From the UHGV virus genome UHGV-1351982: DNA of 64,000 nucleotides, one strand, 5' to 3'. Shown here piece by piece: positions 44,122-60,153 of the stretch. Within the stretch, counting starts at the first letter, position 1; each line of letters begins with the position of its first letter. Under the pieces are notes generated by a model. That model was not told the origin of the DNA and did no database searches. It saw only the letters and a program-made list of their open reading frames with translations. This stretch comes from a virus. Both the position numbers and the translations under genes were made by a program.

Positions 44122-45903
44122 TTAGGTTAGGCGTTGAACTGTTACACGTAGTCTTGGCAAGAAAACAGCTGCCGCTTCTGCAGCGTGAATGATAACACCC
44201 AACTCAACGTTGCCATTACCAAGGTTTTTAATAGTATAAATATATCCGTTCCTACGGAAAGCAAACTTATCAGGCCTACTAGCCCAAGTTTGTGTATAAC
44301 TATAGGAAGTTGTACTGTGATAAGGTACTAGATATCCAGGTGGCAGAGTAAGAATCTGGTGGAATACACCATCACCAGCTGTATAACTTTGTTGACGTCT
44401 ACCTTGTACCTGCCAAGCGCTACCGCCGTAAGTACGCACAGGCATTCCAGCAGTATTAAGATTACCCATAATAACTTCAGTAGTTAATATAACGGTAGAG
44501 TGAGCATTAGGTAATCCTAACCAAACAGTGGCCAAAGGTGTATAGAAGTCACCAGCACCAGGGTAGGAAGGAGTTATATCATCACCAACATAAGTACTTG
44601 CAACGTTGCCTGGAAATAACCTGAGGGGTACAGTACTAGGACTCCACACAGGTCCATGTTCATTACCGATGGAGTTGGTATTAGTATCTACATACCATTG
44701 TTTACCTACACCAAATTTATATAAGCTAATTTGAGAAGCTGCACCCCCATAGTTAACAGGAGACCACAACCCGCCATTACTAGAGCCGATAAATTCACAT
44801 CGTGCAGTATTATCACCAAAAACTCCGGTATACGCAGCGTTATTACCAACATACTCCATATCAGGGCGATAGCCTAAGTTTCCAAAGGCATTCTGGTTAA
44901 TGAATTTATATCCTGTATTTGGTAAACTAACACCTTTAATAGTAAAGTTAGATGGAGATATTAGGATATCTGAACCGGTAAATGGATTACCAGAAACTCC
45001 CATACTACCATTAGAATAGCGCAGATTTAGCACATACCAAATAACCTTAGTTGGCGTAACGTTATACCAGTCCTGTACATATACCTTTCTAGCAGACTGA
45101 GCAGCCATATTAGAAGTAGAACCTCTACAAACATATATTTTTTTTGGATATGCAGGAGATTGGTAAAGAACGTTTACGTTATCTGGTAGTACACCTTTCT
45201 TACCTGCAAAGCCACGAATATTAGAATTACAAACATAAAACCAATCATGGCCTCTACCAGCAGAACCAACAGGCGCCTGCCAGTTAGGTTCCCAATAATC
45301 TGCGTTACCACCATCTAAAGGAACAGTAGAGACACCAGTTGGAAAACCCATAAGACTCCAGGCTCTGGCAATGGCTTCACCAGCAGAAACACCACCAGGT
45401 CTAAAGATCTGGAAACCAGAGGACTGTAGTAAACTGCCTCCAGAACCTTGCCGAGCAATAGATTCCTCATGACCAAGACCACCATTATAGATATAGGTAC
45501 CATGAGCTAAACTATCACCGATCGCAAAAGCAGATGTTACAGATAATTCAGCACCAGCACGTGGTTGGTCTTCAAAGAATGATAAGAACTGGCCAACCTG
45601 AGATTGTGTACCATTAAGGAAACCCCTATGAGTACCATTTATCTCAATAGCAGTTAATATAACTCTACCAGGATCATTGGATTTAATGTTTATAATATCC
45701 CAAGGCATCTGAGTAACAAAGTACCCATTACCTGCATCACCTAGGGCAGCCTCATAAGTCCCATCAACTAGGACGAAGGGCATATCTGAGTGGAAGATAC
45801 TATTAGTATTTGGAGAGTAGTGCTGATTTATATCACCACCATTAGCAGCGTTTAGAGATAATACAGTTTTACCATCACTAAATTTTCCTGCGAAAAAACT
45901 CAT
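44122..45903 (-). CDS. receptor-binding tail protein (T5 pb5-like)
   Basis: 593 aa; Gly/Asn/Ser-rich; N-terminus MSFFAGK... resembles what I recall of T5 pb5; divergent from a lipoprotein gene, as for oad/llp in T5. Confidence 0.6.
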
Positions 45904-45927
45904 ACAATCTCCTTCTTTAAAAATGTA

Positions 45928-45959
45928 TTTGCTTAGATCCCTCTATTTTGCTATAATAT
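45928..45959 (+). promoter_or_regulatory. sigma70-type promoter for the lipoprotein gene (TTGCTT -35, TGCTATAAT -10)
   Basis: Conserved downstream box ATATTTATAAATTAAACAGAGGA; lies in the divergent region shared with the receptor-binding gene. Confidence 0.65.
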
Positions 45960-45986
45960 ATTTATAAATTAAACAGAGGAACGATT

Positions 45987-46253
45987 ATGAAAAAGTTACT
46001 AGCTATCGTAGTTGCAGCAGTAGTGTTGACTGGTTGTGTGCCAGCTCCCGAGCCATTTTGTAGGGCATATGTGAAGTCTTATGGTCATGTTGGTGAAGAA
46101 CACTACGCTTTAGATATTCGAGAAGCACGTACTGTGGGCTACCGATTCCCTAAAACTCAGTTACGCACTAAGTTTGGGTGGTGGGATTTGTCACAGTTTG
46201 ATCTCAAATATGGCGATTGCAAATTTAAACTAGAACAATCTGGTCACTTGTAA
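45987..46253 (+). CDS. llp: lipoprotein, Llp-like (candidate receptor-blocking / superinfection-exclusion protein)
   Basis: 88 aa; signal peptide with lipobox (AVVLTG-C); conserved early promoter upstream; divergent from receptor-binding gene. Confidence 0.7.
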   Translation: MKKLLAIVVAAVVLTGCVPAPEPFCRAYVKSYGHVGEEHYALDIREARTVGYRFPKTQLRTKFGWWDLSQFDLKYGDCKFKLEQSGHL

Positions 46254-46327
46254 TTAGTATAAAGTAAAAAGATCTCGAAGTAAACAAAAATTTTTATTTC
46301 TGGGATGAGGTACAGGTAGCAAACACA

Positions 46328-46642
46328 ATGCAAGATGAAGAAAAGTCCTTTCAGGAACCTGTTAACTTTGAAATAGATCCCAGGACTAAAGCAATACATG
46401 ATGCGATTAACGAAATCATTCAAGACGTCATAGAAGATACAATGGAAGATGTGATGGGAACATCCTTCTTACTAGAAGAATCCGGCTTCGATGAAGTAAT
46501 GGATCTTATCGGGACAGTCATAATGGTTCGTGCAATTGCTAGGATATTCCAAATACCAGGACTACAGGAGAAGCAAAGAGATGTCAGACGACAACAGAAG
46601 AAAGAACAGACGCGGGGAAGTGTACGAAAGTTGGATAAATAG
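46328..46642 (+). CDS. hypothetical acidic protein
   Basis: 104 aa ORF; overlaps the next small gene in another frame. Confidence 0.4.
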   Translation: MQDEEKSFQEPVNFEIDPRTKAIHDAINEIIQDVIEDTMEDVMGTSFLLEESGFDEVMDLIGTVIMVRAIARIFQIPGLQEKQRDVRRQQKKEQTRGSVRKLDK

Positions 46643-46715
46643 TTTCGGATTCGGGACTGTATTATTCTTTATCTTTGTACTCTTTTGGTTAGCGGCTATG
46701 GCGGGATGGTTATAA
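46581..46715 (+). CDS. small membrane protein
   Basis: ATG at 46581 after GGAGAAG inside track ORF 46530-46715; basic N-terminus then one hydrophobic helix. Confidence 0.4.
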   Translation: MSDDNRRKNRRGEVYESWINSFGFGTVLFFIFVLFWLAAMAGWL

Positions 46716-46819
46716 TGGAAGTAGTAATTATTGCTTTACTAGTTGTGGTACTTATCGGGCAGTGCATCTTAGACAACCACTTAGCTCGTATCGAACGTAA
46801 GCTGCGGGGAGACAAATAA
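46715..46819 (+). CDS. small membrane protein (34 aa)
   Basis: Not in track (below size cutoff); ATG overlaps upstream stop (TAATG); hydrophobic N-terminus MEVVIIALLVVVLIG. Confidence 0.4.
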   Translation: MEVVIIALLVVVLIGQCILDNHLARIERKLRGDK

Positions 46820-47013
46820 TGGATTGGTTAGGACTTATTACACTTGTAGTATGGCTTGTCTGGATTGTTGGATATATGACTTCACATCGTAACCGTATAC
46901 AGCGGCTAGAGGATAAAGTCACCCAGCTTAATATTAATATGGATAAGTTACTGGACTCCCAACGTAATGATCGGGCACGTATTCACCAACTTGAGAGGGA
47001 ATTAGATGTTTAG
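46819..47013 (+). CDS. small membrane protein
   Basis: 64 aa; start overlaps upstream stop (TAATG); N-terminal TM helix followed by a charged helical tail. Confidence 0.5.
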   Translation: MDWLGLITLVVWLVWIVGYMTSHRNRIQRLEDKVTQLNINMDKLLDSQRNDRARIHQLERELDV

Positions 47014-47233
47014 CTTTGTAGCTATCTTCATTATCGGGGTGCTTGCGGGAATCTTCGGAACACTCGGGGCTATTAACAAGCATCGTGAATACGTTGCGGG
47101 AGTATCGCGGGAGCTTTCGGAAAGGGAGCGGAAGTTTGCGGAGAAACGTGCGGAGTTTGAGCGAGAGTGGTCGGATGGATCTCGGGCGTCGCAGAGGAGG
47201 TTTCGGGCTGATTCCGTGAGTTCTCCTAAGTAG
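47006..47233 (+). CDS. small membrane protein
   Basis: 75 aa; N-terminal TM helix, Arg/Glu-rich tail; followed by strong terminator. Confidence 0.5.
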   Translation: MFSFVAIFIIGVLAGIFGTLGAINKHREYVAGVSRELSERERKFAEKRAEFEREWSDGSRASQRRFRADSVSSPK

Positions 47234-47340
47234 CGCTAATTTGACTTTTGCCAAATCTCATAAGATTACACATGAAGGTGTGCCCAGAGGTTCCCTAGAT
47301 GAGAATGAGTCTCATTACCGCCCCCTTACTTAGCAAGCTA

Positions 47341-47390
47341 ATAGTCACACCATGTTATCATTACACAGTGTGACTATTTTATTTTTAATT
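47341..47390 (+). terminator. intrinsic terminator after small-membrane-protein genes
   Basis: 10-bp stem ATAGTCACAC/GTGTGACTAT followed by TTTTATTTTT. Confidence 0.6.
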
Positions 47391-47391
47391 G

Positions 47392-48126
47392 TTAGGCAAC
47401 TTTTAATTTATCAATGAATTGTTGCGGTGTGGTACTATATTCCGCGCGTTCTTCCTCGGTCATACCTTCCCAACACATTTTTAAACGTTCGGCTAGGAAT
47501 TGATAATCGTTATCATCATCAAGCGATTCATCAATAAAGGTTTCACCGATCAATGTTACGCCGATTGATAGGATATCGTTAACGGCTTGAGCATCCAGCG
47601 TTTTAAATCCAGCACTTGCCGCCGCTGATAATACACCTTTATGATCATCAATCATTGTAAAATCAGCATTAGGATATAGCTGTTTAAACAGTTCAAAGTA
47701 ATAAGATTTATATACAGCGTCTTTACTGTGGTATATTTCGCTAACCTTATTTGCATCAAAGTATTTATGTAATGTATCGCGGGAAAATACGCGAATATTA
47801 CTATTTCCGCGCCCTCGCAAGCCTTGTTTGCGTAAATAAAAATAATCGCTTTTAGACATTAGGCGCGCGGTACAAATAATATTTAAAGTATTTGCATCAT
47901 TCATACATTGGCGCATATATTCAACCAATGGCAATAAAGAATCCTGCATAATTAAATCATGCTTGCAGGCTTCGCGGGAATATTTATTTAAATCTAAATT
48001 CCCATTATCATCAAAACAAGGCCCGACACGGTGCATTGAGTTAATGATTGTACCGTCTAAATCCCAAATCATAACGCGGGAAATATGCGGGAAAGTGCGG
48101 GTAATATTCATGTTGACTTGATTCAT
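47392..48126 (-). CDS. dmp: 5'-deoxyribonucleotidase, HAD-like (T5 Dmp-like)
   Basis: 244 aa; HAD motif I (VMIWDLDGTI); pre-early gene neighbourhood with A1/A2 homologues. Confidence 0.7.
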   Translation of the reverse strand: MNQVNMNITRTFPHISRVMIWDLDGTIINSMHRVGPCFDDNGNLDLNKYSREACKHDLIMQDSLLPLVEYMRQCMNDANTLNIICTARLMSKSDYFYLRKQGLRGRGNSNIRVFSRDTLHKYFDANKVSEIYHSKDAVYKSYYFELFKQLYPNADFTMIDDHKGVLSAAASAGFKTLDAQAVNDILSIGVTLIGETFIDESLDDDNDYQFLAERLKMCWEGMTEEERAEYSTTPQQFIDKLKVA

Positions 48127-48213
48127 TTGTTACATTCTCCATTTAAGGGATTTAGGTTAATTCAATCTTGCCAGCTAATTATATTGGATTAGCTGGCAAT
48201 GTTCAATTAACTA

Positions 48214-48606
48214 TTAATTAGTGAGGCCATACGCTAGCGCGTCACCAATAAAGCTAAGATCTTCACCATGTACGCTAGAACGAATCCCCGCGCAAGTGTA
48301 GACCATCGCGCTAGCTTCTGGATTGCAGACCGGACACGGCTTAACAACCGCAAACGCTAGACCGGATTTAAGCGCATCAATAATAATTGTTTGTACTGTT
48401 AAAGTATCAGCGTAAACACCTTTTGCTTTTGTATGGCTTGCCACTTTGCCGGTATCATAAGCAAAGGTAGTAACCTGCAAAACGTCGTTATAATTCAGCA
48501 AATCGAAATTAACTTGCCCCGCCTCGACGTGATAACGTTCGCCATTAGAATAAACTAGAACGATGGAAGAAGTAGCGCGGTCAAAAGGAATGCTTTGGTT
48601 TTTCAT
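48214..48606 (-). CDS. hypothetical protein
   Basis: 130 aa ORF in pre-early operon. Confidence 0.5.
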   Translation of the reverse strand: MKNQSIPFDRATSSIVLVYSNGERYHVEAGQVNFDLLNYNDVLQVTTFAYDTGKVASHTKAKGVYADTLTVQTIIIDALKSGLAFAVVKPCPVCNPEASAMVYTCAGIRSSVHGEDLSFIGDALAYGLTN

Positions 48607-48638
48607 GTTTATGACTCCAGATTATTTAATTACGGGAT

Positions 48639-48917
48639 TTATTGAAAAAATACATTTAAAGATAAATCAGTTTTACGAAAATATGTTTCGTCGCCGTCTT
48701 TCCTTTCTTGATTAAGGTAATCGCCTGTCATTACCTGAATAGAATCTTTTCCGAAAAAGATCATATTTTCGCCAATATTACTATCCCATACGGCGTACAT
48801 TCCCGCGTACATTCCACGGGTAACTAAATAAACGCAACTATCAAAAGACATTTCAGACCATGCAATATCTTCTAAACAATTGCTATCAGGGATAGATATA
48901 TTAATTTTACTAGCCAT
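48639..48917 (-). CDS. hypothetical protein
   Basis: 92 aa ORF in pre-early operon. Confidence 0.5.
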   Translation of the reverse strand: MASKINISIPDSNCLEDIAWSEMSFDSCVYLVTRGMYAGMYAVWDSNIGENMIFFGKDSIQVMTGDYLNQERKDGDETYFRKTDLSLNVFFQ

Positions 48918-48969
48918 TTAATAAACCTTTTATTAATGGCGGTATATTTCAACCGCCGATTAAATTTAA

Positions 48970-50634
48970 TTATGCAAAGAATTTACCGTTCTTAAAGTCA
49001 ATCAATGTTCTTTGACCGTTTGCATAGGTAATTAAATGCGTTTGCGTCCAGCTTGACGCGCCCACGTTGTAGCCCATATCAAGGGAACCAGCAACGCCAG
49101 CGGTATAAACGCCGCCGTAAATGCTAGCCGTATGAGTATGACCAGTGTTAAGGCGTCCCAACTTTTTAAACTGCTTAGGATTGCCCCGACTGCCGTTAAT
49201 GCCATTGTGACCATGTACGCCGCATTCAATGCCAGCGATTTTAAACGACTGGTCAGTAGTCAGGAAAATAGCGTTAAATTCGCAACCTGCGACACTACGC
49301 AAGGCGTAATCTAGCACGTTAAAAGTATCATCCTTTTCAGCAATAGCGGCGTATATAGCAGCGTTTAGACGGTGATACAATTCCGCGTTTGCGGGATCGT
49401 CTTTAATGTTAGCGTTACGATCATCTAACCAGCGGGATAAAGCTAAATCATGGTTAGATTCAACAATGATTGTTTGAGAGAAATCACGCTCCATTGATTC
49501 TAATACGCGTCCAGTGTCGATAAGATCATCTAGAACCTTGTCACGTCCTGCGGCGTACTGTTTAGCAAGGAATACACCACTAGCGCGGTTGTGATGGTTA
49601 CGCGATGTAAAATCATGCACATCATGAATAAACTGATATTTAGGCTTGAGAATATCAAGCAAGCTGTTTTCACTAGCCCATGAAGCAACGGCGCATTCAT
49701 CATCTAATTTTTCGGCGTGAATATCACCATATTGCAAGCCTAGAACATGATCGGACGTTTCAAAACATCCGGTAGGCATAGCGCAAACATTCAAATCATA
49801 AAACATTCCGCTTTCGTCCATCGTTTCAAGCTGACGAACAAAAAATTCGCCGTCGTCGTCAAATTCTACCAGCAAAGCGCCGAAATTATGTAAAGCCTCG
49901 GCCTTTTGTCCTGCCTTTTGCTGGATATAGTTTTTAAGCGTAGCCGTTCCGGTTGAATACATACGGCGCACTACTTCACCTTTTAACGCTGGCACACTTT
50001 CAGCGGTAATTTTAGCGTGACCAATTGCCAGACCTTCAATATTTAAAGCCGTGGCGGTTTCTGCGAATCCTGAAAGCGGATAGTCTGCCGTTGGTAACAC
50101 GTTAATTTCAGCCATGAAAGCAAAACGGCGATTATTTAAAAATACGTTTTTCTCGCAAATATATTTATTAAATGCGGGATCGTATTTAATGCCTTCGTTA
50201 CCTTCTCCATTCTGGAAGCCGTTTTTATTGTAAATGAATTTACTAACCAGCAATTCACCGCCGATATATTCAGCGAATTTTTCCAGACTTGCTAAAAAGT
50301 TTTTATGCGGGAAAGTATTATTTTGAATCGACGTTAGAATAAAACGGCGACCGGATTTAACTTCCCACTGTTCCACGGTACTAGAAACAATTCCCGCCGC
50401 TTCGGGGCGATCATCATTTTTAATCGCCTTTTCAGCTTTTGCCGCTTTCGGTTTTGCTGGCTTATTTGCTTCCAACCAATCGCAAATTGCGGTTGAATGT
50501 TTCGTTGTATCGTAAACAGCTTTTGATATATCGTCGCAAACTTCCAGCTTAGTAGCGCGTAAACGTTTACCGTAGAAATTAAAATCAGCGGCAAGTTTAA
50601 CGATCTGGGCTTGTTTTTCTGCGGAAATATTCAT
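48970..50634 (-). CDS. A1: A1-like pre-early protein, metallophosphoesterase fold
   Basis: 554 aa (T5 A1 recalled as ~556 aa); calcineurin-type motifs (SDH, GDIH, ESNHD, GHTHT). Confidence 0.8.
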   Translation of the reverse strand: MNISAEKQAQIVKLAADFNFYGKRLRATKLEVCDDISKAVYDTTKHSTAICDWLEANKPAKPKAAKAEKAIKNDDRPEAAGIVSSTVEQWEVKSGRRFILTSIQNNTFPHKNFLASLEKFAEYIGGELLVSKFIYNKNGFQNGEGNEGIKYDPAFNKYICEKNVFLNNRRFAFMAEINVLPTADYPLSGFAETATALNIEGLAIGHAKITAESVPALKGEVVRRMYSTGTATLKNYIQQKAGQKAEALHNFGALLVEFDDDGEFFVRQLETMDESGMFYDLNVCAMPTGCFETSDHVLGLQYGDIHAEKLDDECAVASWASENSLLDILKPKYQFIHDVHDFTSRNHHNRASGVFLAKQYAAGRDKVLDDLIDTGRVLESMERDFSQTIIVESNHDLALSRWLDDRNANIKDDPANAELYHRLNAAIYAAIAEKDDTFNVLDYALRSVAGCEFNAIFLTTDQSFKIAGIECGVHGHNGINGSRGNPKQFKKLGRLNTGHTHTASIYGGVYTAGVAGSLDMGYNVGASSWTQTHLITYANGQRTLIDFKNGKFFA

Positions 50635-50743
50635 AACTAATTCAACTCCTATAAAGGGATAAAGATTAAAGCTGGCAATATTGCCAAATATAACGCCTTG
50701 CCTGAAGTGAGGACAATTTAAAAGGCGTTATAATTTGCAACAT

Positions 50744-50968
50744 TTAATTAATCGGCATTAAACTAGAACAAAAGCCAAATACAATGCCAATTGTAAGAAA
50801 GATAATTGACATATATTTTTGAATGTTCGCGTTTTTGCGGAAATTATTTGCGGCGTAAACGTTATTAATTCCAATTATTGCCAGAATTGACCGCGTATAA
50901 TTCAGAATAAAAGCGGCGGCAATAATAAATAAACCTAAAATAAACGCTTCGCTAGGATAAAAGATCAA
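50744..50968 (-). CDS. small membrane protein
   Basis: 74 aa; two hydrophobic segments. Confidence 0.45.
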   Translation of the reverse strand: MIFYPSEAFILGLFIIAAAFILNYTRSILAIIGINNVYAANNFRKNANIQKYMSIIFLTIGIVFGFCSSLMPIN

Positions 50969-51018
50969 GATTATTCTCCTTTAAGGGATAGCGGGGAATA
51001 TTCCCCGCTAATTAAAAT

Positions 51019-51435
51019 TTATTCACCTGCGGCCTGTTTTACTTCCTCCGCTACGCCTAACAATTGCGCTACGGCGTCCAGCGTTTCCAGTTTTGCACTT
51101 TCCAGACTTGCCAAATCGTCGGCATCTTTTACAATGCCGCTATCAATGGCATGTTTAGCAATGACGCGCACATAGTGAGCTTTACGGACAGAGCTACCGC
51201 CGCCAACTTTACGCGGTTTATCGCTTTTCTGATAGGCTTTTGCACTGGCCAATTTAGAACGTACAGAAACAGGGGACGCAGCGCCAACGGCGGCGGCAAT
51301 TTCTTTTAAGCCGTCACTATTCGCAAACTCAATCCCGCTTTTAGCAACCATTTCAGAGTACATAGAAACAGCTTTTTCGGTGTTTTCTTCGTTCCAAGAG
51401 AATTTTGCGGTTTTTTCGGTTTTAACGTTAGACAT
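51019..51435 (-). CDS. A2: A2-like pre-early protein (putative DNA-binding)
   Basis: 138 aa; immediately upstream of A1 homologue in transcript order; size consistent with T5 A2. Confidence 0.6.
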   Translation of the reverse strand: MSNVKTEKTAKFSWNEENTEKAVSMYSEMVAKSGIEFANSDGLKEIAAAVGAASPVSVRSKLASAKAYQKSDKPRKVGGGSSVRKAHYVRVIAKHAIDSGIVKDADDLASLESAKLETLDAVAQLLGVAEEVKQAAGE

Positions 51436-51535
51436 AATTTAATACTCCATTCAATTATTAATTAAGGGATTATGATTAACTAATGTTAATCCATATATTC
51501 CCCATATTTCAGGGGAATATAAAAGTAACACTAAT

Positions 51536-51787
51536 TTATGCTATAGCTTGCCATTTATCATCTTTCTGAATGATCTTTACAACGTCGCCAGATTTAACGC
51601 GAACATTATAAATAGGCTTGCTGTTGTTACTGCGTTCCGTTTCCGCATAGACCGCTTCAATCTTATCAAAGGGATCAAGCGCCGCACCTTTGATACGTTC
51701 GGCTTTTCCGGTTAATTCATCAGTTTTAGTTACAAAAGGAATGAAAACAGATTGACCTACTTTCGGCGCGGTAATAACGTTTTGCAT
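51536..51787 (-). CDS. hypothetical protein
   Basis: 83 aa ORF in pre-early operon. Confidence 0.5.
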   Translation of the reverse strand: MQNVITAPKVGQSVFIPFVTKTDELTGKAERIKGAALDPFDKIEAVYAETERSNNSKPIYNVRVKSGDVVKIIQKDDKWQAIA

Positions 51788-51898
51788 TTTTAATACTCCG
51801 GTTTATTGGGGATTATTCCACAATAGCGCCTCGATACTTTGAAACGCTATTAGATTATAATCCGCTAGGAGTTAGCCTAAACATTACCATTATCCAAA

Positions 51899-51944
51899 TT
51901 TTTAAAGAGCAGTTACTACGGGGAACATCTTAAAACCTATCGGC
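51899..51944. repeat. composite repeat A+B upstream-flanking a small basic ORF
   Basis: 13-mer TTTTTAAAGAGCA (A) plus 25-mer GGGGAACATCTTAAAACCTATCGGC (B); partner at 52204-52243 has B inverted and A direct. Confidence 0.55.
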
Positions 51945-51951
51945 TAGCGTG

Positions 51952-52170
51952 TCAAGCGTTTTTTAAACTTTTTTCGATTTGATGTGAGTTATATAAATCA
52001 ATCATTATATTACGCCACACCATTTCCAGACCTTGCTGCTTACCTTTCTTGTATTGCTTGAATCTGTATTTTACAGATCGTTGCGCTACTGTCAACAAAT
52101 TTTTTGTTCTGCTATCCAGTGGGCTAGCAGGTTTTGCACTAATCACTAAAGCGTTTTTTGATTTGATCAT
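51952..52170 (-). CDS. small basic protein (possible DNA-binding)
   Basis: 72 aa, Lys/Arg-rich; flanked by 25-bp inverted repeats. Confidence 0.45.
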   Translation of the reverse strand: MIKSKNALVISAKPASPLDSRTKNLLTVAQRSVKYRFKQYKKGKQQGLEMVWRNIMIDLYNSHQIEKSLKNA

Positions 52171-52203
52171 TATCGTCGATTCCTTATAATGTATAAGTTT
52201 ACC

Positions 52204-52243
52204 GCCGATAGGCTTTAAGATGTTCCCTAGTTTTTAAAGAGCA
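52204..52243. repeat. composite repeat B'(inverted)+A
   Basis: GCCGATAGGCTTTAAGATGTTCCC is the reverse complement of B (2 mismatches), followed by a direct copy of TTTTTAAAGAGCA. Confidence 0.55.
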
Positions 52244-52560
52244 TGGCGGTAAACTTCCCCGCCGTGTAATCTTGCGTTTCGTTTCCGTCCCGCCGTCCTA
52301 CGAGATAAATAATAGGGGATTCCCGAAAATGGCGCAACCTTATTTTTGTAAAGAAACGTAAAGAAAACCACTACCCGCACCACGGCAAGCGGCGCACTAA
52401 GTTTAATGAAACAGGCGCGCGAATAACACTAAAACAACCACTTTAGCAAGTAATTTTTTCATTTATATCTGCTCTAGGGTACTTGACAAAATCTAAAATC
52501 CTCGTGGTGAGGTTTTCTCGGTGTACCCCTTATGATTGCCTATCTTTTCCTTTGATGCGC

Positions 52561-52587
52561 TTAGAATCGCTTACAGAGCGTTTTAGA
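52561..52587. repeat. ~27-bp direct repeat, copy 1 (TTAGAATCGCTTACAGAGCGTTTTAGA)
   Basis: Near-identical copy at 56302-56329. Confidence 0.6.
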
Positions 52588-52799
52588 CCCTGTTAATAAC
52601 TTATACAAAAAGCAAAAATGAAATTTAATGAGTTATCCACTTGATTTTTCAAAAAAGTATTTTCTGCTGTTATTTTTCATTGACAAATAAGTTTAGACGT
52701 GCATTGATTGGTTAGCAGACTAACAATCGCTAGGATAATAATCACGCTGGTGGATTGTAACAGCCGAAACAGTTAGCAGACTATTAATACTCTAAAAAC

Positions 52800-52834
52800 C
52801 TATTAGCCAACTAACTATTTCATATTATATAATA
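52800..52834 (+). promoter_or_regulatory. orphan promoter-like element (TATAAT at 52828-52833) in a non-coding region
   Basis: Matches the conserved -10 plus downstream box (TATAATATACTTATAAATTAAAGAGA) but no ORF follows for >400 bp; -35 weak. Confidence 0.35.
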
Positions 52835-52904
52835 TACTTATAAATTAAAGAGAAATAATAACTATAAGAAACTATCGGCTAAGTGAGAACCACTATCATT
52901 TAGG

Positions 52905-52974
52905 TTATTCACAAAGTTATCCACAGCACAAAATAACTTGACGCAATAGGCGACGTTTTGGCGACTTATCCACA
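52905..52974. promoter_or_regulatory. DnaA-box cluster (TTATTCACA 52905-13, TTATCCACA 52917-25, TTATCCACA 52966-74)
   Basis: Two perfect and one near-consensus 9-mer matching the E. coli DnaA box TTATCCACA, inside an ~1 kb non-coding region. Confidence 0.6.
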
Positions 52975-52994
52975 GACTTATGTACAGGTTATCC

Positions 52995-53014
52995 TACTGT
53001 ATAAATATACAGGG
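52995..53014. promoter_or_regulatory. LexA-type SOS-box-like palindrome (TACTGTATAAATATACAGGG)
   Basis: CTGT-N8-ACAG with AT-rich core, next to the DnaA boxes. Confidence 0.5.
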
Positions 53015-53261
53015 TAGAATGGTAGCAGTAACAACCGCAATCAAATTTAAGCGGCCTAGAACGCGCTACACGGCGTTTTCTCACTGCTACCCTTATTATA
53101 ATAAAGCCTTGTGTACGCTTACAGAGAGCTAGAAATAGAAAACGCGCGGTTATCATAAAAACAGGCAGTAGGCAAGGAATAAAAAACCTTTTCTTTTTTC
53201 TTGCCCATAGTGAACAAATATCTATATCATTCACTCACCGATTAACGAGGGAGGCAAAGAA

Positions 53262-54281
53262 ATGTCTACTGTAAGAATTGCAGTGCCAGCAAACGCAACT
53301 ATTGTTAAAGGTAGTTTGCGCAACCTGCTAGATGGTAGTAGTGCGGCAAGTATTCAGCACACCGCTACTATTGTAGAAAAGATTCACGATGAAATTTTAG
53401 ACAATAATGATACTCATTATTCAGTTGATGATTTCACGCTATTACTAGACCAGACAAGGGCGCTAGTAATTTTCAACCGTGATTATCACATTTTCCGTAA
53501 TAGTCGGGGAACTGATATTGATTTTATCATTGTTGGTTATAGTGAGTCTCATAGTGGTTACATTGCGCGATTATATAACGTGCAAGAAAAGGAGCAGGTA
53601 ACAGCAACAAAAGTAAATAATATCCGGCTGGATAGTGTCGGATCGTTATTAAATAGTATCTGGCGTGAATTATCCTCAAGCTATAAAGGTGCGGATAGTG
53701 ACGCAATCGAAACAACTGGCGTATTGTGTTTTGAAAAGTCAACGGGTAACATGTTGATCCCTAGCGATTATTTAGGGTATGGGAATGAATCAAACGTTGC
53801 AAACGCTGGATTTACACTTTTCCCGCTTGACAATGTAACAAAACAGGCTGTAAACTCTCAAACTTCAAGCGCAATTGCGCAAACTACTGAAAATAAAGGA
53901 AATAACACTATGTCTAAAGTAACCGCTATCGTTGCCGCTAATAAATCCGCCGCCGCTACCGCTGCAAAACTGGAAGCGGGTAAAGTAGCACTAACTCAGC
54001 TTACAAAAGTAGCGGCTAAAGCCCTGCCTTCTGGTATGGCTGGCATGTTCGCTAAACAGTATTTAGATACTCCGGTCGGGCGCGTTGTTGTTGCCAACTT
54101 GTTAAATCTGGCAATCGAACAATACGCACCGAATAACCAGAAAGCGCGAATTGTTGCTAAAGCCGCAATGGATGCCGCAATGCTGGAAGTGGTACAGAGT
54201 TTCAATATTTCTGAAATGATCGACAAGGCAATCGAGGGAATCAACATTGATGCTTTGACTGCTAATATTTCAGAAGAGTAA
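53262..54281 (+). CDS. hypothetical pre-early protein
   Basis: 339 aa; GAGGGAGG RBS; Ala-rich C-terminal half; intrinsic terminator downstream. Confidence 0.6.
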   Translation: MSTVRIAVPANATIVKGSLRNLLDGSSAASIQHTATIVEKIHDEILDNNDTHYSVDDFTLLLDQTRALVIFNRDYHIFRNSRGTDIDFIIVGYSESHSGYIARLYNVQEKEQVTATKVNNIRLDSVGSLLNSIWRELSSSYKGADSDAIETTGVLCFEKSTGNMLIPSDYLGYGNESNVANAGFTLFPLDNVTKQAVNSQTSSAIAQTTENKGNNTMSKVTAIVAANKSAAATAAKLEAGKVALTQLTKVAAKALPSGMAGMFAKQYLDTPVGRVVVANLLNLAIEQYAPNNQKARIVAKAAMDAAMLEVVQSFNISEMIDKAIEGINIDALTANISEE

Positions 54282-54289
54282 TAATAACA

Positions 54290-54325
54290 AGCGGGAATTA
54301 ATTTTCCCGTTTTCTTCCCTTTTAG
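54290..54325 (+). terminator. intrinsic terminator
   Basis: Hairpin CGGGAA-TTAATT-TTCCCG followed by TTTTCTTCCCTTTT. Confidence 0.65.
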
Positions 54326-54339
54326 TTAGGAGACTAATT

Positions 54340-54831
54340 ATGTTTGGTAACAGAAATTATGGCAACCCTATTGAAGCACGATCCCTTAATCATGACGCAA
54401 TTGTATTCACTCATGCGTCTACCGGTTATTGTGGATCAGATGGGAATGATTATCATTTCGTTCCCGCTGGTGACGATATTGATGATCTATGTAATGAGGC
54501 AGGTTATGAAAATGCTTGCTCTTATGGTCTAGAAGTTATTGAAGTAGACGACGGCGAATATGAGGATAATGATAATATTGAATGCTCCGCTTATCATTAT
54601 CAGTTAAGTGAATCAGGTTGTTATATTGGCGGCGGCGATCCTATTAATTCCATCACTGAAATAATTATTGAAAATGGTGGCGTTTCGCTGAATGGTAACA
54701 AGGCGTTACTATATGCAAACCGATTAAAGCAACTTGTATATATTCCTGATGGGAAAGAATGGGAAGAATACAACGTTCTAATTGCAGAATTGAAAAGCTG
54801 TTTCGGCGTGGAAGTGGTAGAAATAGTCTAA
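54340..54831 (+). CDS. strongly acidic protein (candidate DNA mimic / anti-restriction)
   Basis: 163 aa; roughly 30 Asp+Glu against about 7 Lys+Arg, several Cys; AGGAG RBS; own terminator. Confidence 0.6.
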   Translation: MFGNRNYGNPIEARSLNHDAIVFTHASTGYCGSDGNDYHFVPAGDDIDDLCNEAGYENACSYGLEVIEVDDGEYEDNDNIECSAYHYQLSESGCYIGGGDPINSITEIIIENGGVSLNGNKALLYANRLKQLVYIPDGKEWEEYNVLIAELKSCFGVEVVEIV

Positions 54832-54845
54832 TGTAAAGTTTTGTA

Positions 54846-54875
54846 AAGGTCGCCCTAATCGGCGGCCTTTTTTGT
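54846..54875 (+). terminator. intrinsic terminator
   Basis: Hairpin GGTCGCC-CTAAT-CGGCGGCC followed by TTTTTTG. Confidence 0.65.
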
Positions 54876-54938
54876 TATAATGCCTTTACACCGAAACGGT
54901 GGATTGAAAATTTTCCCTGATTTCTAGGAGGCGTTAAA

Positions 54939-55169
54939 ATGGTTGCTTTCTCTTCTTCTGACTCCCTTTTCACTGGTAAAGGTTGGGTATCTAATCGCTG
55001 GATCATTGATCAAATGGTTTCGGAATTTGGGATTGGTAAAACTTATGTTACCATTCAGGCGCTTTATGATAATGACAAGATTGACCAGCAAACCGCCGGA
55101 TTTTTGCTGGATACGCTGAAAGCGGAACATTGCACTAAAAAGCAAGCGGCAAAAATTGTTTTAATGTAA
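54939..55169 (+). CDS. hypothetical protein
   Basis: 76 aa; TAGGAGG RBS 7 nt upstream. Confidence 0.55.
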   Translation: MVAFSSSDSLFTGKGWVSNRWIIDQMVSEFGIGKTYVTIQALYDNDKIDQQTAGFLLDTLKAEHCTKKQAAKIVLM

Positions 55170-55216
55170 TTAATAACGGGGCGTTACTTTCGCCCCTCAT
55201 TCCCTTACTAGGAGTT

Positions 55217-55435
55217 ATGCAAATGTTAAAGAATGTTTCCCTTGCCCGTTCTAAAGGTTTTAAGCTGGTGGATGTTAACACCTTCGAGCGTCCAGATTGT
55301 AAAATCGAATATGTAGCACGCAACAAAAACCCTTTCCGTGTTACAGAAAAGAAATTTGACAAGCGCGGCAATTTGATAGCCGAAACGGTTAAACACTTTG
55401 CTACTTTTTACGCTGCTTTTCGTGGGGTATTATGA
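55217..55435 (+). CDS. hypothetical protein
   Basis: 72 aa; TAGGAG RBS. Confidence 0.55.
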   Translation: MQMLKNVSLARSKGFKLVDVNTFERPDCKIEYVARNKNPFRVTEKKFDKRGNLIAETVKHFATFYAAFRGVL

Positions 55436-55544
55436 GATCCTTATATATTGCTCTAGCGTTTGCTACTGTTGGCGTTGTATGCTCATTCGCCGCATTTGTT
55501 TTAAAAATGTACATGATATTTTCCCAGCTTTAGGAGGTTGACAA

Positions 55545-55892
55545 ATGGTAATTTATGAGGGCAATCGTTTTGTTGCTAATTGCCGTCCGGCATTGTTAGC
55601 AAACTATTTAAATCAGCTTTCACCAGTTTATAAAGGCGTGGTTAATATCTATGAAGGCAAAGCACATTATAAAATTTCTGCCGTTGTCGCTCGCGAGCTT
55701 GCCTTTCAGTTTCTTACTTTTAACTCATGCGATATTCAGGTTATGGGTGAGCCATTAGTCGCAGAAAATGAAAATGAATTTATTGACATTTTCCGCAAAG
55801 TATGTACAGAGCGCCTGATTATGAAGGGCGCGTATATTCAATCAACCGCTGAAAGTATTGAAACAGCGTTTCGAAAAATTGTAAATGAATAG
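55545..55892 (+). CDS. hypothetical protein
   Basis: 115 aa; TAGGAGG RBS. Confidence 0.55.
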   Translation: MVIYEGNRFVANCRPALLANYLNQLSPVYKGVVNIYEGKAHYKISAVVARELAFQFLTFNSCDIQVMGEPLVAENENEFIDIFRKVCTERLIMKGAYIQSTAESIETAFRKIVNE

Positions 55893-56018
55893 CTGGTGGC
55901 GAAAAACACAAAGCCATAAATCTAATAATACCGCTGGGAAACATTCCCAGCGTTTACGATTTGGTAATGGCTGCGTAATGATATTGATAATCATCCTCAT
56001 TCTAGGAGCGATGGCGTT

Positions 56019-56213
56019 ATGAGTGATAAAATTGTTGTAACTAAAACTACTGTTACCGTTGATACTTTCTTTGTGCCTGATACGCTGGAAAATCGGCAAT
56101 TAGTCGAGCGTGGCGATTATGACAAAGTGATATATGATGGGGATGGATACTATCAACATTTGGTAGACTCCTACGGCGAAAGCGAAAAGATCACACATCG
56201 ACTACCAGACTAA
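56019..56213 (+). CDS. hypothetical protein
   Basis: 64 aa; TAGGAG RBS; terminator downstream. Confidence 0.5.
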   Translation: MSDKIVVTKTTVTVDTFFVPDTLENRQLVERGDYDKVIYDGDGYYQHLVDSYGESEKITHRLPD

Positions 56214-56216
56214 TAA

Positions 56217-56250
56217 TAACGGGGCGCAACTATCGGCCCCGTCTTTTCTG
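56217..56250 (+). terminator. intrinsic terminator closing the pre-early + cassette
   Basis: Hairpin ACGGGGC...GCCCCGT followed by CTTTTCT. Confidence 0.55.
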
Positions 56251-56301
56251 GCCTTCCTCAAATTTCCCCTTATTAAAATACCTCTTCCAAAAATAAACGC
56301 G

Positions 56302-56329
56302 TTAGAATGCGTTACAGAGCGTTTTAGAG
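56302..56329. repeat. ~27-bp direct repeat, copy 2
   Basis: TTAGAATGCGTTACAGAGCGTTTTAGA, matching 52561-52587. Confidence 0.6.
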
Positions 56330-56358
56330 CTATATTAGAGTTATTCACTACGCAGGAA

Positions 56359-56378
56359 TACTGTATAAATATACAGTA
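56359..56378. promoter_or_regulatory. LexA-type SOS-box-like palindrome (TACTGTATAAATATACAGTA)
   Basis: Near-perfect match to the LexA consensus TACTGTATATATATACAGTA; second copy, in inverted module. Confidence 0.55.
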
Positions 56379-56398
56379 GAATAATCTGTTGATAAGTC

Positions 56399-56468
56399 TG
56401 TGGATAACGCCTCAAAATCGCTAGGATTTTGTCAAGTCAAATCGTGCTGTTAATAAACCTGTGGATAA
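56399..56468. promoter_or_regulatory. DnaA boxes in inverse orientation (TGTGGATAA at 56399-56407 and 56460-56468)
   Basis: Two perfect reverse-complement DnaA 9-mers; with the LexA-like box they form an inverted copy of the 52.9-53.0 kb module. Confidence 0.6.
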
Positions 56469-56499
56469 CTTAAATAACAGTGTTTCTCACTTCGCTTTG

Positions 56500-56640
56500 T
56501 AAATGCGAGTCATTCTCATTATCATTCGCGTTTCCCTTCCTAAATGCAAATCATTCTCATTCGTATTCCGGTAGTCAAATGATAACTATTCTCATTCGCA
56601 TTCAACTTCTCAAATGCGAATCAATCTCATTATCATTCGC
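56500..56640. repeat. four tandem ~30-bp dyad-symmetric iteron-like repeats
   Basis: AAATGC(G/A)A(G/A)TCATTCTCATT(ATCATTCGC) units at about 56500, 56542, 56575 and 56610, each with an internal GCGA..TCATTCGC inverted repeat. Confidence 0.6.
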
Positions 56641-56680
56641 ATTTCGGCAGGCAGGGCATTTTCTATTTGCCCTGCGCTTT

Positions 56681-57281
56681 TGTGCAAATCCGACATTTGC
56701 CCCCACGGATTACGTGCCAGCGTGTATGTGCGAATCCGACAATTTTTGGTAGTGTGCAAATCCGACCCGAAATATTTTTATAGTGTGCGAATCCGACAAT
56801 GAATTTCCCTAAAAACTCCAGCAATCTCGAACTGCGATCGAATCCTGTGGGATATGCGCAAATCCGACATGAGTTTGCTAGGAGACAGATTTATGGTTTC
56901 AGGAATATTTTTGTGACTTCGATGAGAGGGTGTGTAATTGTGTGAGTTTGGGGAGAAGTGCGAATCCGATGAGGTTTTGGGAGGAACTATGAGAGGAGCA
57001 GCGGTGTTGGTGCTTTAGCACCGATTTGCTGCGTTTTTGGGGATAATGTGAGATGTTTTGGGATAATTGGGCGTGGGGTGAGATAAAGTGAAATTTTATT
57101 AGTTAAATGGGGCAAAATCGCTTGACAAGTGAAAATTCCTGTGTCCCTAAAAACTCAGGCAATCATGGGCCTTCGGCCCGAAATAATGCTGCTATTTTCA
57201 GGAGATTATGTGCTCATGAAAACTTAGGCAATTGTGCAAATCCGACCAGTTTTTAAACTTATATCAGTGTGCAAATCCGAT
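56681..57281. repeat. eight dispersed copies of the 13-mer GTGCRAATCCGA(C/T)
   Basis: Copies at about 56681, 56727, 56754, 56784, 56855, 56958, 57232 and 57266, in a region with no convincing ORF. Confidence 0.65.
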
Positions 57282-57817
57282 AGCAATTTCCAGAAATGTG
57301 TTTTCAAAAAATGTTGTCTAGAAATAACCGCCCTCCCCATAACCGCCCTGTATTAACCGCCTATTGCTGGAGTTTCTAGGAACATGAAAACCGCCTGAGT
57401 TAATGGGAGTTTTCCTAGAAACTTAGGAGTCTAGAAGAAAGTGTTGTGCCATCCTAGCAGATGAGCGGCAACAGGTGTATCATCTTGAACGTTAATTTAT
57501 CTATTTAACAGTATTAGTTTTTATATAAGTATAAGATCCCCAAGGGTTCTCATATAGAGCTTTGCCCCCGCCAGAAGGTCTCGTGATGTTTCTAGTAATC
57601 TTTATTAAATTACTTGTTGACTTGTCCTGTCGCTCCGTAACCTACGCTACAAGTCAGTAATTTAAGATTCCTGAACCACCACACCTTCTGTGTGGCAACT
57701 CTAAATGGTTAATTCTATTAACTCATAGAGTTATGATAACATACATTTAGCTATCTGTCAACGAGAGTTTGTATCTGAGTCTCGGTACAGGTATTGTGCA
57801 CCGAGACATGCAGGATC

Positions 57818-58705
57818 TTACAGTAACTCTTGGTATGCTTTTTGGTACGCCTCAGTGTTAGTAGGTGTATCTTTTGCAATAGTTATTAATTCATCTGTGA
57901 TCTGAATATTCGTATTATAACGTGAGTGGAACTCGTCAGGAATTTCTAGATACCTATTGATGAATGCTGCAGCAAGCGGTGAAGCTATACCCATTTCTAG
58001 AACCCATCCAACTTGTTTCTCAAACTTCAAATAAGGAGATTCTGTTTGAATAGTAGAAGTTTTGGTTTCCTTGATTTCTTTTATTGGTAGGATTGGATTT
58101 TCATAACGTGCTTCTTCAGGGATAGCAGATCTACGTTCTTTATAAATATAAGTCTCTAGATCCGATGCTTTAGACCCTGAATATACTGCAAAGACACTTG
58201 CTTTACCTTGTGATGCTCTAATTGGTAAATAGCAATTTGGATAACTTCTCAATGCATCGTGGAAAGGGCTTCCAGAATATTGATAACGCTCTCCATATAA
58301 ATCATCAATGTTCATTCGTTCATCTTCGAAGATATGGAATGCACTAAATGAAGGTAGTGTGAAATATTCTGTTTCTAGCGCGCGAATTAAGAATCGATGA
58401 GCATATGCACTAATCTTAATAACTGTGTAGGGTTTTTCTCCTTCTTTGAGAGCGTTACCCTTAGATGTAACTTGATAACGTTTTCCGAAGAACTCTACTA
58501 AACGCTTCTCGTTTAAAGAGAGTGTAGAGTATAAACGTCCGTTCAGTCCTAGCAAGGTATCAAACATAAATGCTAGCTTATCTTTTTCTTCTTGGGTTAG
58601 TTCAGGAAATGGTAGGATCTTAGCATTTGGAATGTTATTTGTTTCCTTTGCCTTTCCTTTGCCAGCATTTTGTCTCAGTTTGTCTTTAAAATTATAAGTA
58701 CCCAT
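57818..58705 (-). CDS. hypothetical early protein
   Basis: 295 aa ORF; hairpin just downstream of stop. Confidence 0.55.
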   Translation of the reverse strand: MGTYNFKDKLRQNAGKGKAKETNNIPNAKILPFPELTQEEKDKLAFMFDTLLGLNGRLYSTLSLNEKRLVEFFGKRYQVTSKGNALKEGEKPYTVIKISAYAHRFLIRALETEYFTLPSFSAFHIFEDERMNIDDLYGERYQYSGSPFHDALRSYPNCYLPIRASQGKASVFAVYSGSKASDLETYIYKERRSAIPEEARYENPILPIKEIKETKTSTIQTESPYLKFEKQVGWVLEMGIASPLAAAFINRYLEIPDEFHSRYNTNIQITDELITIAKDTPTNTEAYQKAYQELL

Positions 58706-58774
58706 TGTATTTCCTTTTTAAGGTCAGATGACCTGCTTTTTATTTTAAAGCCTCCGTAGAGGCTTTTGTGTTAG

Positions 58775-59020
58775 CTACTTTTTGCGTGGTATTACATCCA
58801 CACATACTAGACCTAGTTGTTTAACAAGATCTGCTAAATAACAATGATGCAAGATTGCTTCTTTTGGTATTTTACTTACTAACTCAATAATAGTGCGTAG
58901 ATCTTGTTGGTTAGCAAAGAAAACATGTCTGATTTCTTCTTTTAAATAAATACCAAACGTATCTGTATTAATAAGTTTTATACTAAAGTCTTCATGTTCA
59001 TAAGAGAGCAGTGTATCCAT
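58775..59020 (-). CDS. hypothetical protein
   Basis: 81 aa ORF in - strand early gene array. Confidence 0.5.
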   Translation of the reverse strand: MDTLLSYEHEDFSIKLINTDTFGIYLKEEIRHVFFANQQDLRTIIELVSKIPKEAILHHCYLADLVKQLGLVCVDVIPRKK

Positions 59021-59682: not shown

Positions 59683-59867
59683 TATCTATTCTCCAGTTTA
59701 TCTAACAGCTTACGAGCTGCGATATTATGTTGTTTAATTTCTCGGTTAAGAATCTCATTCTCACTATTTAATTCTAGATTCTTAACATTAAGACGACTGC
59801 ATATAATTATCAAGCCTAGAATAGTTAAGAGTGAGCCGCCTAGTAGTACAAGAAGTAGTGTTTCCAT
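59682..59867 (-). CDS. small membrane protein
   Basis: 61 aa; N-terminal TM helix, coiled C-terminus. Confidence 0.45.
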   Translation of the reverse strand: METLLLVLLGGSLLTILGLIIICSRLNVKNLELNSENEILNREIKQHNIAARKLLDKLENR

Positions 59868-59868
59868 A

Positions 59869-60153
59869 TTAACCCCAGATTAGCATCCAACTTTTATCAA
59901 AGGTGGCTGCTCTATTAATTACTTCACGCATAGAGATACTATTATCTTCTACAGCTTCTATTACAAACTCATGCCCAAAAGAGTCTAGCAGATATTCTTT
60001 ACCATCAATCTTTACCTTAAATAGGGTAGGAACTAACGGATGATTATTTGGGTAAGGATTTGTACCTATAAAGACTTCATGCCTCCCCCACGTCGTCTTG
60101 AATAGTTTGTGGGAGAGTAGAGCTAAGGGGTTTGACCAGACTACGTACTCCAT
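59869..60153 (-). CDS. hypothetical protein
   Basis: 94 aa ORF; overlaps upstream gene by ~77 nt. Confidence 0.45.
   Translation of the reverse strand: MEYVVWSNPLALLSHKLFKTTWGRHEVFIGTNPYPNNHPLVPTLFKVKIDGKEYLLDSFGHEFVIEAVEDNSISMREVINRAATFDKSWMLIWG

Follow-up and report, generated by a model that had tools for sequence, protein, structure and literature searches.

A probable single assembled copy of a T5-like long direct terminal repeat in the viral genome UHGV-1351982

The record of phage T5 (NC_005859) places dmp, A1 and A2 in both copies of its long terminal repeat (1-10219 and 111532-121750), and the receptor-binding and lipoprotein genes oad/llp about 0.9 kb to the inside of the right copy, both in agreement with a preliminary description of the DNA studied here. 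The order dmp-A1-A2 is common to all 25 T5-like phages studied by Davison. In the related Salmonella phage Stitch (KM236244), the repeat was set from raw reads by PAUSE (PMC4319617). Such repeats can collapse to one copy during assembly; this has been described for T5-like phages of Salmonella, where coverage was roughly 2x and PFGE gave confirmation (PMC10783031), and there are further precedents (PMC5816814; BF23, by PhageTerm).

Here we compare these systems with a stretch of 64,000 nucleotides from the viral genome UHGV-1351982 (hereafter, the window). Judging by homology, we put the probability at about 0.93 that it is T5-like phage sequence assembled or deposited with one copy of a direct terminal repeat of about 9.87 kb, and with an arbitrary start elsewhere.

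Source and gene order

Against T5, the window is collinear with the stretch that begins near 58.9 kb (58,855) and reaches the right end, and then with positions 1 to about 15,800. On the basis of this collinearity across the 64 kb and of nucleotide similarity over an 11.2 kb query, its source is a T5-like phage (Demerecviridae, Markadamsvirinae) that is Epseptimavirus-like, a placement drawn from the similarity of this query, whereas species or genus assignment needs whole-genome similarity. Many Epseptimavirus records cover at least 91% of the query, at 91-95% identity, and the nearest relative among the matches listed is E. coli phage NG_S8 (94.6% identity over the region). The exact A1 protein also occurs on a Logan contig of 17.9 kb (SRR5677846) that matches the window at 99.96% identity; the contig stops at window position 52850, just ahead of an inverted-repeat arm, and so bears neither on the termini nor on coverage. 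No tRNA genes or Rfam families were found in the 64 kb window.

The proposed succession of late genes, a pre-early block and then about 6 kb of further minus-strand early genes is borne out by the ORFs, family matches and collinearity with T5 (Table 1). The terminase pair (42313-44111, minus strand) is the end of the late packaging module. The pb5 homologue has the position of T5.157 and CPT_Stitch160, and the Cor/Llp-like lipoprotein is the counterpart of the Stitch receptor-blocking protein. The small ORFs that follow (46328-47233) align, in Stitch, SIY1lw and T5, to the unique DNA that precedes the right terminal repeat. Within the pre-early block, dmp, A1 and A2 run leftward in this order at the left end, as in a T5-like first-step-transfer region. 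Beyond it, the minus-strand ORFs encode a T5.018-like 295-aa protein and then small proteins, homologous to T5.018 onward and collinear with T5 10936-15814 and Stitch 11871-16746. For pb5, llp, dmp, A1 and A2, our local copy of Pfam gave no matches at E < 1e-3, and these genes were instead identified by PHROGs and by newer Pfam families recorded on identical Logan genes.

Table 1. Features of the late, pre-early and early regions, with window coordinates
Feature	Position	Strand	Basis
Terminase large subunit	42313-43629	-	Pfam Terminase_6N/6C, PHROG terminase large subunit; collinear with T5.155/T5.156
Terminase small subunit	43629-44111	-	PF26823 T5_Terminase_small on 99.96% identical Logan contig; collinear with T5.155/T5.156
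Receptor-binding tail protein pb5 / oad homologue	44122-45903	-	PHROG 4815, E 3e-283; PF26860 Phage_T5_RBP5
Cor/Llp-type receptor-blocking lipoprotein	45987-46253	+	PHROG 1119, Cor superinfection exclusion protein, E 2e-23
Small ORFs, T5.159-162 equivalents	46328-46642, 46819-47013, 47006-47233	+	ORF list
Long direct terminal repeat, single assembled copy (first-step-transfer / pre-early region)	47281-57147 (9,867 bp by T5-equivalent ends)	.	Homology
dmp, deoxynucleoside-5'-monophosphatase	47392-48126	-	PHROG 415; PF26880 Phage_T5_dNMPase; position as T5.001
Small pre-early ORFs, T5.002- and T5.003-like	48214-48606, 48639-48917	-	ORF list; collinear with T5, Stitch
A1, DNA transfer protein	48970-50634	-	PHROG 1745, E 1e-243; position as T5.004
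Small membrane protein, T5.005-like	50744-50968	-	PF26907 Phage_Bf23_A1 on identical Logan gene; position as T5.005
A2, DNA-binding protein needed for second-step transfer	51019-51435	-	PHROG 1725, E 6e-50; PF26822 Phage_T5_A2
Small pre-early ORFs, T5.007- and T5.008-like	51536-51787, 51952-52170	-	PF23801, PF24188 on Logan genes; T5 alignment
Non-coding divergent-promoter and repeat region	52171-53261	.	No long ORF; T5 annotation
Large inverted repeat, left arm (IRC-spacer-IRD)	52878-53012	.	Consensus DnaA boxes at 52905, 52917, 52966
Rightward pre-early arm	53262-56213	+	ORFs, family matches; aligned to T5.012-T5.015, Stitch genes 9-14
DUF7566 protein, T5.011-like	53262-54281	+	In rightward arm
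163-aa ORF, absent from T5	54340-54831	+	PHROG 6741
Small ORFs of rightward arm	54939-55169, 55217-55435, 55545-55892, 56019-56213	+	ORF list
Large inverted repeat, right arm (IRD'-spacer-IRC')	56361-56495	.	DnaA boxes at 56399, 56460
Direct repeats, 27-51 nt (AAATGCGAnTCAnTCTCATT...)	56484-56645	.	Repeat families D2, D3; part of iss repeat region
Predicted major single-strand nick site	56674-56678	-	...AAAA↓GCGC...; homologous to T5 interruption 9748/9749
DRD repeats, 8 copies of 12-mer GYGCRAATCCGA	56682-57280	+	6 within repeat, 2 past right end
Unique non-coding DNA right of repeat end	57148-57817	.	Alignment
Early genes after left repeat in T5-like genomes	57818-63733	-	ORF list; PHROG 8583

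The pre-early block had also been described as more GC-rich than its neighbours, which does not hold. GC content is 39.6% in the repeat, 41.4% in the late flank, 38.0% in the early flank and 39.9% in the whole window, and 79% of equally long sliding windows have a GC content at least as high as that of the repeat. A GC-rich island or distinct codon usage is ruled out, with per-ORF GC and GC3 showing no difference from either flank (Mann-Whitney p 0.14-0.91); GC is locally raised only in the genes for A1 (42.6%) and A2 (46.8%).

Predicted ends of the repeat

To set the boundaries of the repeat, we aligned the window by blastn and MAFFT with T5, Stitch, SIY1lw and vB_SenS-3 and carried over their annotated repeat ends (annotated with the first-step-transfer function in T5, and as repeat_region in SIY1lw and vB_SenS-3). 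On the left, position 1 of T5 corresponds to window position 47281, and position 1 of Stitch and vB_SenS-3 to 47282. On the right, the repeats of T5 and SIY1lw end at 57147, that of vB_SenS-3 at 57150 and that of Stitch at 57152 (Stitch-equivalent ends, 47282-57152). Among the four references, the left end varies by at most 1 nt and the right end by at most 5 nt. The passage from the late flank into the repeat occurs only at the right end of the references (three right-end loci), and that from the repeat into the early flank only at their left end (three left-end loci). The boundaries match the genome termini of the relatives; pb5/llp lie beyond the left one and the early genes beyond the right one.

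The preliminary description had the layout right, but the repeat starts about 1 kb later and ends about 350 bp earlier than the span it gave (47281/47282 to 57147-57152, and not 46300-57500). The excluded margins are unique DNA with small plus-strand ORFs (46300-47280) and unique non-coding DNA (57148/57153-57500). It had also named a relative with the same gene order and distant ends as a refutation; we saw the opposite, as the ends of T5, Stitch, SIY1lw and vB_SenS-3 all map here.

A collapsed repeat that is real but bounded elsewhere than at the T5- and Stitch-equivalent positions, such as the shorter repeat of some T5-like groups, is very improbable. The ends proposed here follow from homology, and repeat lengths among T5-like phages range from 8,451 to 10,219 bp, which counts against taking such ends as exact. 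However, the differences in length among the references are internal insertions and deletions that leave the ends unmoved; T5 (10,219 bp), Stitch (9,982 bp), SIY1lw (10,101 bp) and vB_SenS-3 (9,455 bp) end at the same nucleotides, within 1-5 nt, and the window retains a conserved context at both cuts.

Each cut site lies within an island of locally high conservation. Immediately left of the left cut, 22 of 22 nt match T5, and 57098-57217 is 88-100% identical to T5, versus 45-70% for the neighbouring non-coding DNA. This second block holds the hairpin GGGCCTTCGGCCC, and is flanked on both sides by DRD 12-mers. Comparing the alignments by eye, we saw no obvious cut-site motif common to both boundaries, and a scan for consensus promoters and terminators gave many weak matches that did not help in placing them. 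Perhaps the islands (the 22-nt block left of 47281, and 57098-57217 with its hairpin) are terminase recognition elements, although we consider this rather doubtful. If they were, they would let a T5-type terminase cut twice, 9.9 kb apart, on a concatemer, and the window would add one comparative data point towards defining these so far undefined elements.

The putative injection-stop region

In Davison's scheme (bioRxiv 10.1101/866236), the central non-coding region (52171-53261) is the counterpart of Repeat Regions 1 and 2, which the HNH gene hegG does not split here; it includes a T5-type promoter repeat at 52821-52854 (repeat family D2). The two arms of the large inverted repeat are 135 nt long and 75% complementary; the equivalent pair in T5 lies at 6188-6228 and 9411-9451. 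The 64 kb window has seven consensus DnaA boxes, five of them within these arms. Boxes occur in pairs 3 bp apart, and each of the two consensus boxes in the right arm has a variant box at this distance. We regard the right arm as a candidate for the core of the injection stop signal, which is annotated in T5 (iss) at 9140-10149; the IRD'-spacer-IRC' inverted repeat itself was already described by Davison (bioRxiv 10.1101/866236).

The DRD 12-mer has 10 matches in the window at up to one mismatch, eight of them in 56682-57280, versus 0.55 expected by chance; nine copies are listed for T5 (bioRxiv 10.1101/866236). The nick site is predicted from the T5 alignment and the annotated consensus NPu↓pGCGCN. 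The right end of the repeat is a large untranslated region with an inverted repeat, paired DnaA boxes and DRD repeats, as in a T5-like injection-stop region. For two-step injection, which halts at iss and resumes with A1/A2, the comparison covered the sequence determinants.

One assembled copy and comparison with known phages

No second copy of the repeat, full or partial, was found, and long direct repeats are absent across the 64 kb window; the only long-range repeats are the T5-type promoter families and the 135-nt inverted repeat. As both flanks surround one repeat copy, the window cannot be the virion molecule. The earlier proposal of a single collapsed copy gains support from the homology of the ends and the continuity of the flanks, by which the window belongs to an assembly that was closed into a circle or collapsed and that starts at an arbitrary point, its sequence the same as that of a concatemer junction. 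We infer that the virion DNA would end at 47281 and 57147-57152 and carry two repeat copies. From a start near 47281, it would lead with dmp, A1 and A2, then the rightward pre-early arm and the injection-stop region. The early genes (from 57818) would come next and, after the remainder of the genome, the late genes with pb5/llp would precede a terminal second copy of 47281-57147. Assemblers would merge the identical copies, closing the contig on itself as late genes, one repeat and early genes; the junction of a replicative concatemer would have the same order.

Less probable still than displaced ends is a virion that truly lacks a long terminal repeat, for example a circularly permuted, headful-packaged genome with these genes contiguous once per genome. 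Although one copy is what the sequence displays, all characterised relatives (T5, BF23, Stitch, chee24 and, with PFGE, K37) carry long direct terminal repeats, dmp/A1/A2 and the injection stop signal must occupy a fixed leading end for two-step transfer, the window encodes a T5-like terminase, and both cut-site contexts are conserved. Least probable of all is a chimeric misassembly, or the sequencing of intracellular concatemers instead of virion DNA: the same contiguous arrangement recurs in dozens of independent records, the independent Logan contig matches the continuity from late genes into repeat with 99.96% identity across the junction, and although a concatemer has an identical junction order, such that by sequence a collapsed virion assembly looks no different from reads of concatemer origin, either case has the same implication for genome structure.

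With a collapsed repeat, the single-copy assembly would fall about 9.9 kb short of the true virion genome. The natural start of that genome would be window position 47281 and its end the second copy of position 57147, and about 14 genes in 47392-56213 would be present twice per virion. The coordinate origin of the record is arbitrary. The value of this is practical, for annotating and using the sequence, and leaves knowledge of T5-like biology unchanged.

A single copy between late and early genes is the usual deposited form, and our finding, while correct, is ordinary. Among the best 30 related matches, 26 are single-copy records of 108-116 kb, nearly all with the region internal and at scattered coordinates. 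The internal features (dmp-A1-A2, the DnaA-box inverted repeat, DRD repeats and nick site) have already been described for T5-like phages. The single-copy records NG_S8, KKP 3953, INF11, SmurfNell and SB10 share the contiguous late-repeat-early order, nearly always internal to 108-116 kb, and the window does not differ from them in kind but is a different isolate (best identity 94.6% among the matches listed). The NG_S8 record opens about 100 bp beyond the repeat end, and not at an arbitrary internal position.

With T5, the window shares the order dmp, T5.002, T5.003, A1, T5.005, A2, T5.007, T5.008, followed by divergent promoters, a rightward arm (T5.011-T5.017-like) and an injection stop region with DnaA-box inverted repeat, DRD repeats and GCGC nick site. 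Both ends lie at homologous nucleotides; pb5/llp directly precede the right copy, and the genes from T5.018 on directly follow the left one. However, nucleotide identity to T5 is only about 70-88%, the central non-coding region is without the hegG HNH endonuclease, the 163-aa ORF (54340-54831) is extra, and the repeat is about 350 bp shorter and present once, whereas the T5 record has two copies. Stitch (Epseptimavirus; 9,982-bp repeats) is closer: its identity to the window is about 90-94% in the repeat and 97% in the late flank, it has the same 163-aa-type ORF, and its ends fall within 0 nt (left) and 5 nt (right) of the other references. Unlike the window, Stitch was deposited with both copies (123,475 bp), has an extra 250 bp or so (ORF 165) directly left of the repeat, and carries different genes in place of the window's T5.018-like gene, leaving 57541-59273 of the window unaligned.

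Gene order and collinearity with T5

With window positions 46300-57500 as the query, a megablast search of 50,697 phage records returned 550 matches, nearly all of them T5-like phages of Salmonella, Escherichia or Klebsiella; the best was E. coli phage NG_S8, which covered 97% of the query at 94.6% identity. By blastn, collinearity with T5 (NC_005859) extends along the entire window. Positions 3-41415 correspond to T5 58,855-105,000, where + strand genes for replication give way to - strand genes for tail and head; 41415-47280 corresponds to the final unique T5 segment left of the right terminal repeat, and 47349-62566 to the T5 left end (83-15,814). Key gene identities were confirmed by protein searches (see table). 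The order given in the preliminary description, in which a late module precedes a pre-early block and about 6 kb of early genes on the - strand come last, is real. Its placement of dmp, A1 and A2 within the T5 terminal repeat is also correct (1-10219 and 111532-121750 in the T5 record), and the T5 genes oad (pb5) and llp terminate about 0.9 kb to the left of the right copy. Within the tail genes, T5 ltf (pb1, the L-shaped tail fibre) encodes 1,396 aa, whereas the ORF at this position of the window, 22009-23223 (-), is only 404 aa long. T5 81,435-85,769 has no nucleotide match in the window.

The pre-early block had also been described as more GC-rich than its neighbours, which it is not. The repeat has 39.6% GC, against 41.4% in the late flank (the DNA to its left, with terminase, pb5 and llp), 38.0% in the early flank (to its right, with the T5.018-like gene) and 39.9% in the window, and 79% of same-length sliding windows have a GC content at least as high. 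Neither per-ORF GC nor GC3 differed between the repeat and either flank (Mann-Whitney p 0.14-0.91).

Boundaries and copy number of the terminal repeat

We aligned to the window both ends of T5 and Stitch (KM236244), together with the repeat ends as annotated in SIY1lw and vB_SenS-3. On the left, 47281 corresponds to position 1 of T5 and 47282 to position 1 of both Stitch and vB_SenS-3; on the right, 57147 corresponds to the last base of T5 and SIY1lw, 57150 to the vB_SenS-3 repeat end and 57152 to that of Stitch. Repeat length varies among the four references (10,219 bp in T5, 9,982 bp in Stitch, 10,101 bp in SIY1lw and 9,455 bp in vB_SenS-3) because of internal insertions and deletions, yet they agree to within 1 nt at the left end and 5 nt at the right. 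The Stitch repeat was derived from raw reads by the PAUSE method (PMC4319617), and hence is no mere copy of the T5 annotation. These aligned ends refine the predicted boundaries in the window to 47281/47282 and 57147-57152, giving a repeat of about 9,867-9,871 bp. The region originally proposed, 46300-57500, does contain the repeat, but the predicted start lies about 1 kb later and the predicted end about 350 bp earlier.

At the right-end loci of the reference phages (L001, L002 and L005), the window's late flank is continuous with the repeat, and the reference ends at 57147-57152; at the left-end loci (L003, L004 and L006), the reference begins at 47281/47282 and continues unbroken into the window's early flank. 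In a virion molecule these two junctions would lie on different repeat copies, whereas in the window both lie on one. No second copy of the repeat was found anywhere in the 64 kb window, which, together with the shared junctions, points to an assembly that was closed into a circle with its repeats merged; the sequence of a concatemer junction is identical. Homology to the reference genome ends thus supports the earlier suggestion of a collapsed terminal repeat, and from these alignments we consider this reading of the single copy highly probable.

A single assembled copy is the norm in databases. Among the best 30 of the 550 matching records, 4 are 120-124 kb long with the repeat at both ends, and the other 26 are 108-116 kb long, nearly all with the region at an internal position, scattered between records (26 kb, 55 kb, 64 kb, 82 kb, 97 kb and others). 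The same collapse has been reported for T5-like Salmonella phages, where coverage was roughly 2x and PFGE confirmed it (PMC10783031), and repeats have been defined by coverage pile-up in T5-like phages (PMC5816814) and with PhageTerm in BF23 (PMC10644984). Collapse of this kind is already known from assemblies of T5-like phages and does not represent new biology.

A Logan contig of 17.9 kb (SRR5677846_44523) is 99.96% identical to window 38970-52850 (5 mismatches in 13,881 bp), so raw data exist for an almost identical phage (SRR5677846). The contig breaks at 52850, just before an arm of the 135-nt inverted repeat, and is uninformative on the termini.

Conservation and variation around the predicted cut sites

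Near the right end, non-coding DNA shares 45-70% identity with T5; the non-coding block 57098-57217, which spans the predicted cut at 57147, is 88-100% identical, including 40 of 40 positions at 57158-57197. It contains the hairpin GGGCCTTCGGCCC and has DRD 12-mers (direct repeats described by Davison in T5) on both sides. On the left, the window and T5 are identical at 22/22 positions directly before the predicted cut. Conservation at both sites supports the view that this phage would be cut at the same places as T5. The conserved islands might be terminase recognition elements and, as such candidates, are the only lead with some novelty; the right-hand block may instead be a terminator.

Directly outside the left boundary lies a 75-aa ORF, 47006-47233 (+), with 53% GC and 57% GC3, against about 40% GC for the genome. 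Stitch and SIY1lw have about 250 bp more than the window between this ORF and the repeat, including an extra 216-bp ORF. The first early genes right of the repeat (57541-59273) are mosaic: the window, T5 and vB_SenS-3 share a T5.018-like 295-aa gene, whereas Stitch has unrelated genes and no alignment here.

Anatomy of the repeat and comparison with T5-like phages

Features of the terminal repeat and its flanks
Feature	Position	Strand	Basis
Terminase large subunit	42313-43629		Protein search
pb5 receptor-binding protein	44122-45903		Protein search
Cor/Llp-like lipoprotein	45987-46253		Protein search
Leftward arm: dmp, two small ORFs, A1, small membrane protein, A2, two more small ORFs	47392-52170		
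dmp	47392-48126		Protein search
A1	48970-50634		Protein search
A2	51019-51435		Protein search
Non-coding region, 1.1 kb, with T5-type promoter repeat	52171-53261		
135-nt inverted repeat, either side of rightward arm	52878-53012 and 56361-56495		
Rightward arm: DUF7566 protein, 163-aa ORF, four small ORFs	53262-56213		
DUF7566 protein	53262-54281		Protein search
Direct repeats, 27-51 nt	56484-56645		
Predicted nick site A|GCGC, conserved copy of T5 nick site	56674-56678	-	
Eight copies of GYGCRAATCCGA (DRD) straddling repeat end	56682-57280		
T5.018-like protein	57818-58705		Protein search

The HNH gene hegG splits the central non-coding region in T5, whereas this region of the window has no HNH endonuclease. 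The 163-aa ORF, 54340-54831 (+), has no T5 counterpart and is found in Stitch, SIY1lw and NG_S8; it belongs to PHROG 6741 (function unknown), and a Pfam search gave no match.

A family of direct repeats of 34-61 nt (TTGC...TATAAT...ATAAATTTGAGAGAG) occurs at 156, 3696, 5945, 7338, 15804, 15932, 45918 and 52821; the copy at 45918 lies between pb5 and llp, that at 52821 in the central non-coding region of the terminal repeat. By sequence, they look like the strong early promoters of T5 type, whose downstream region is conserved. Two DRD-like 12-mers, GTGCAAATCCTA and GTGCAAATCCGA, lie 15 nt apart at 19265-19291 (+) in coding sequence aligning to T5 D13. Translated, they would give a short repeated peptide (VQIL/VQIR), so the pair is probably coincidental.

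The injection-stop region of the window retains the sequence of the major nick site of T5 (consensus Pu|GCGC), and a gene matching PF26848 (Phage_T5_Nicking_endo), 41761-42285 (-), adjoins the terminase genes. T5 has a counterpart of the 135-nt inverted repeat. In the window, the two arms of this inverted repeat hold five of the seven consensus DnaA boxes present in all 64 kb, paired 3 bp apart, as Davison described in 25 T5-like phages (bioRxiv 10.1101/866236). T5 carries nine DRD copies, in a repeat region that overruns its terminal repeat end by 270 bp (bioRxiv 10.1101/866236). These features of the repeat, from the leftward arm to the DRD copies, have all been catalogued before in T5-like phages.
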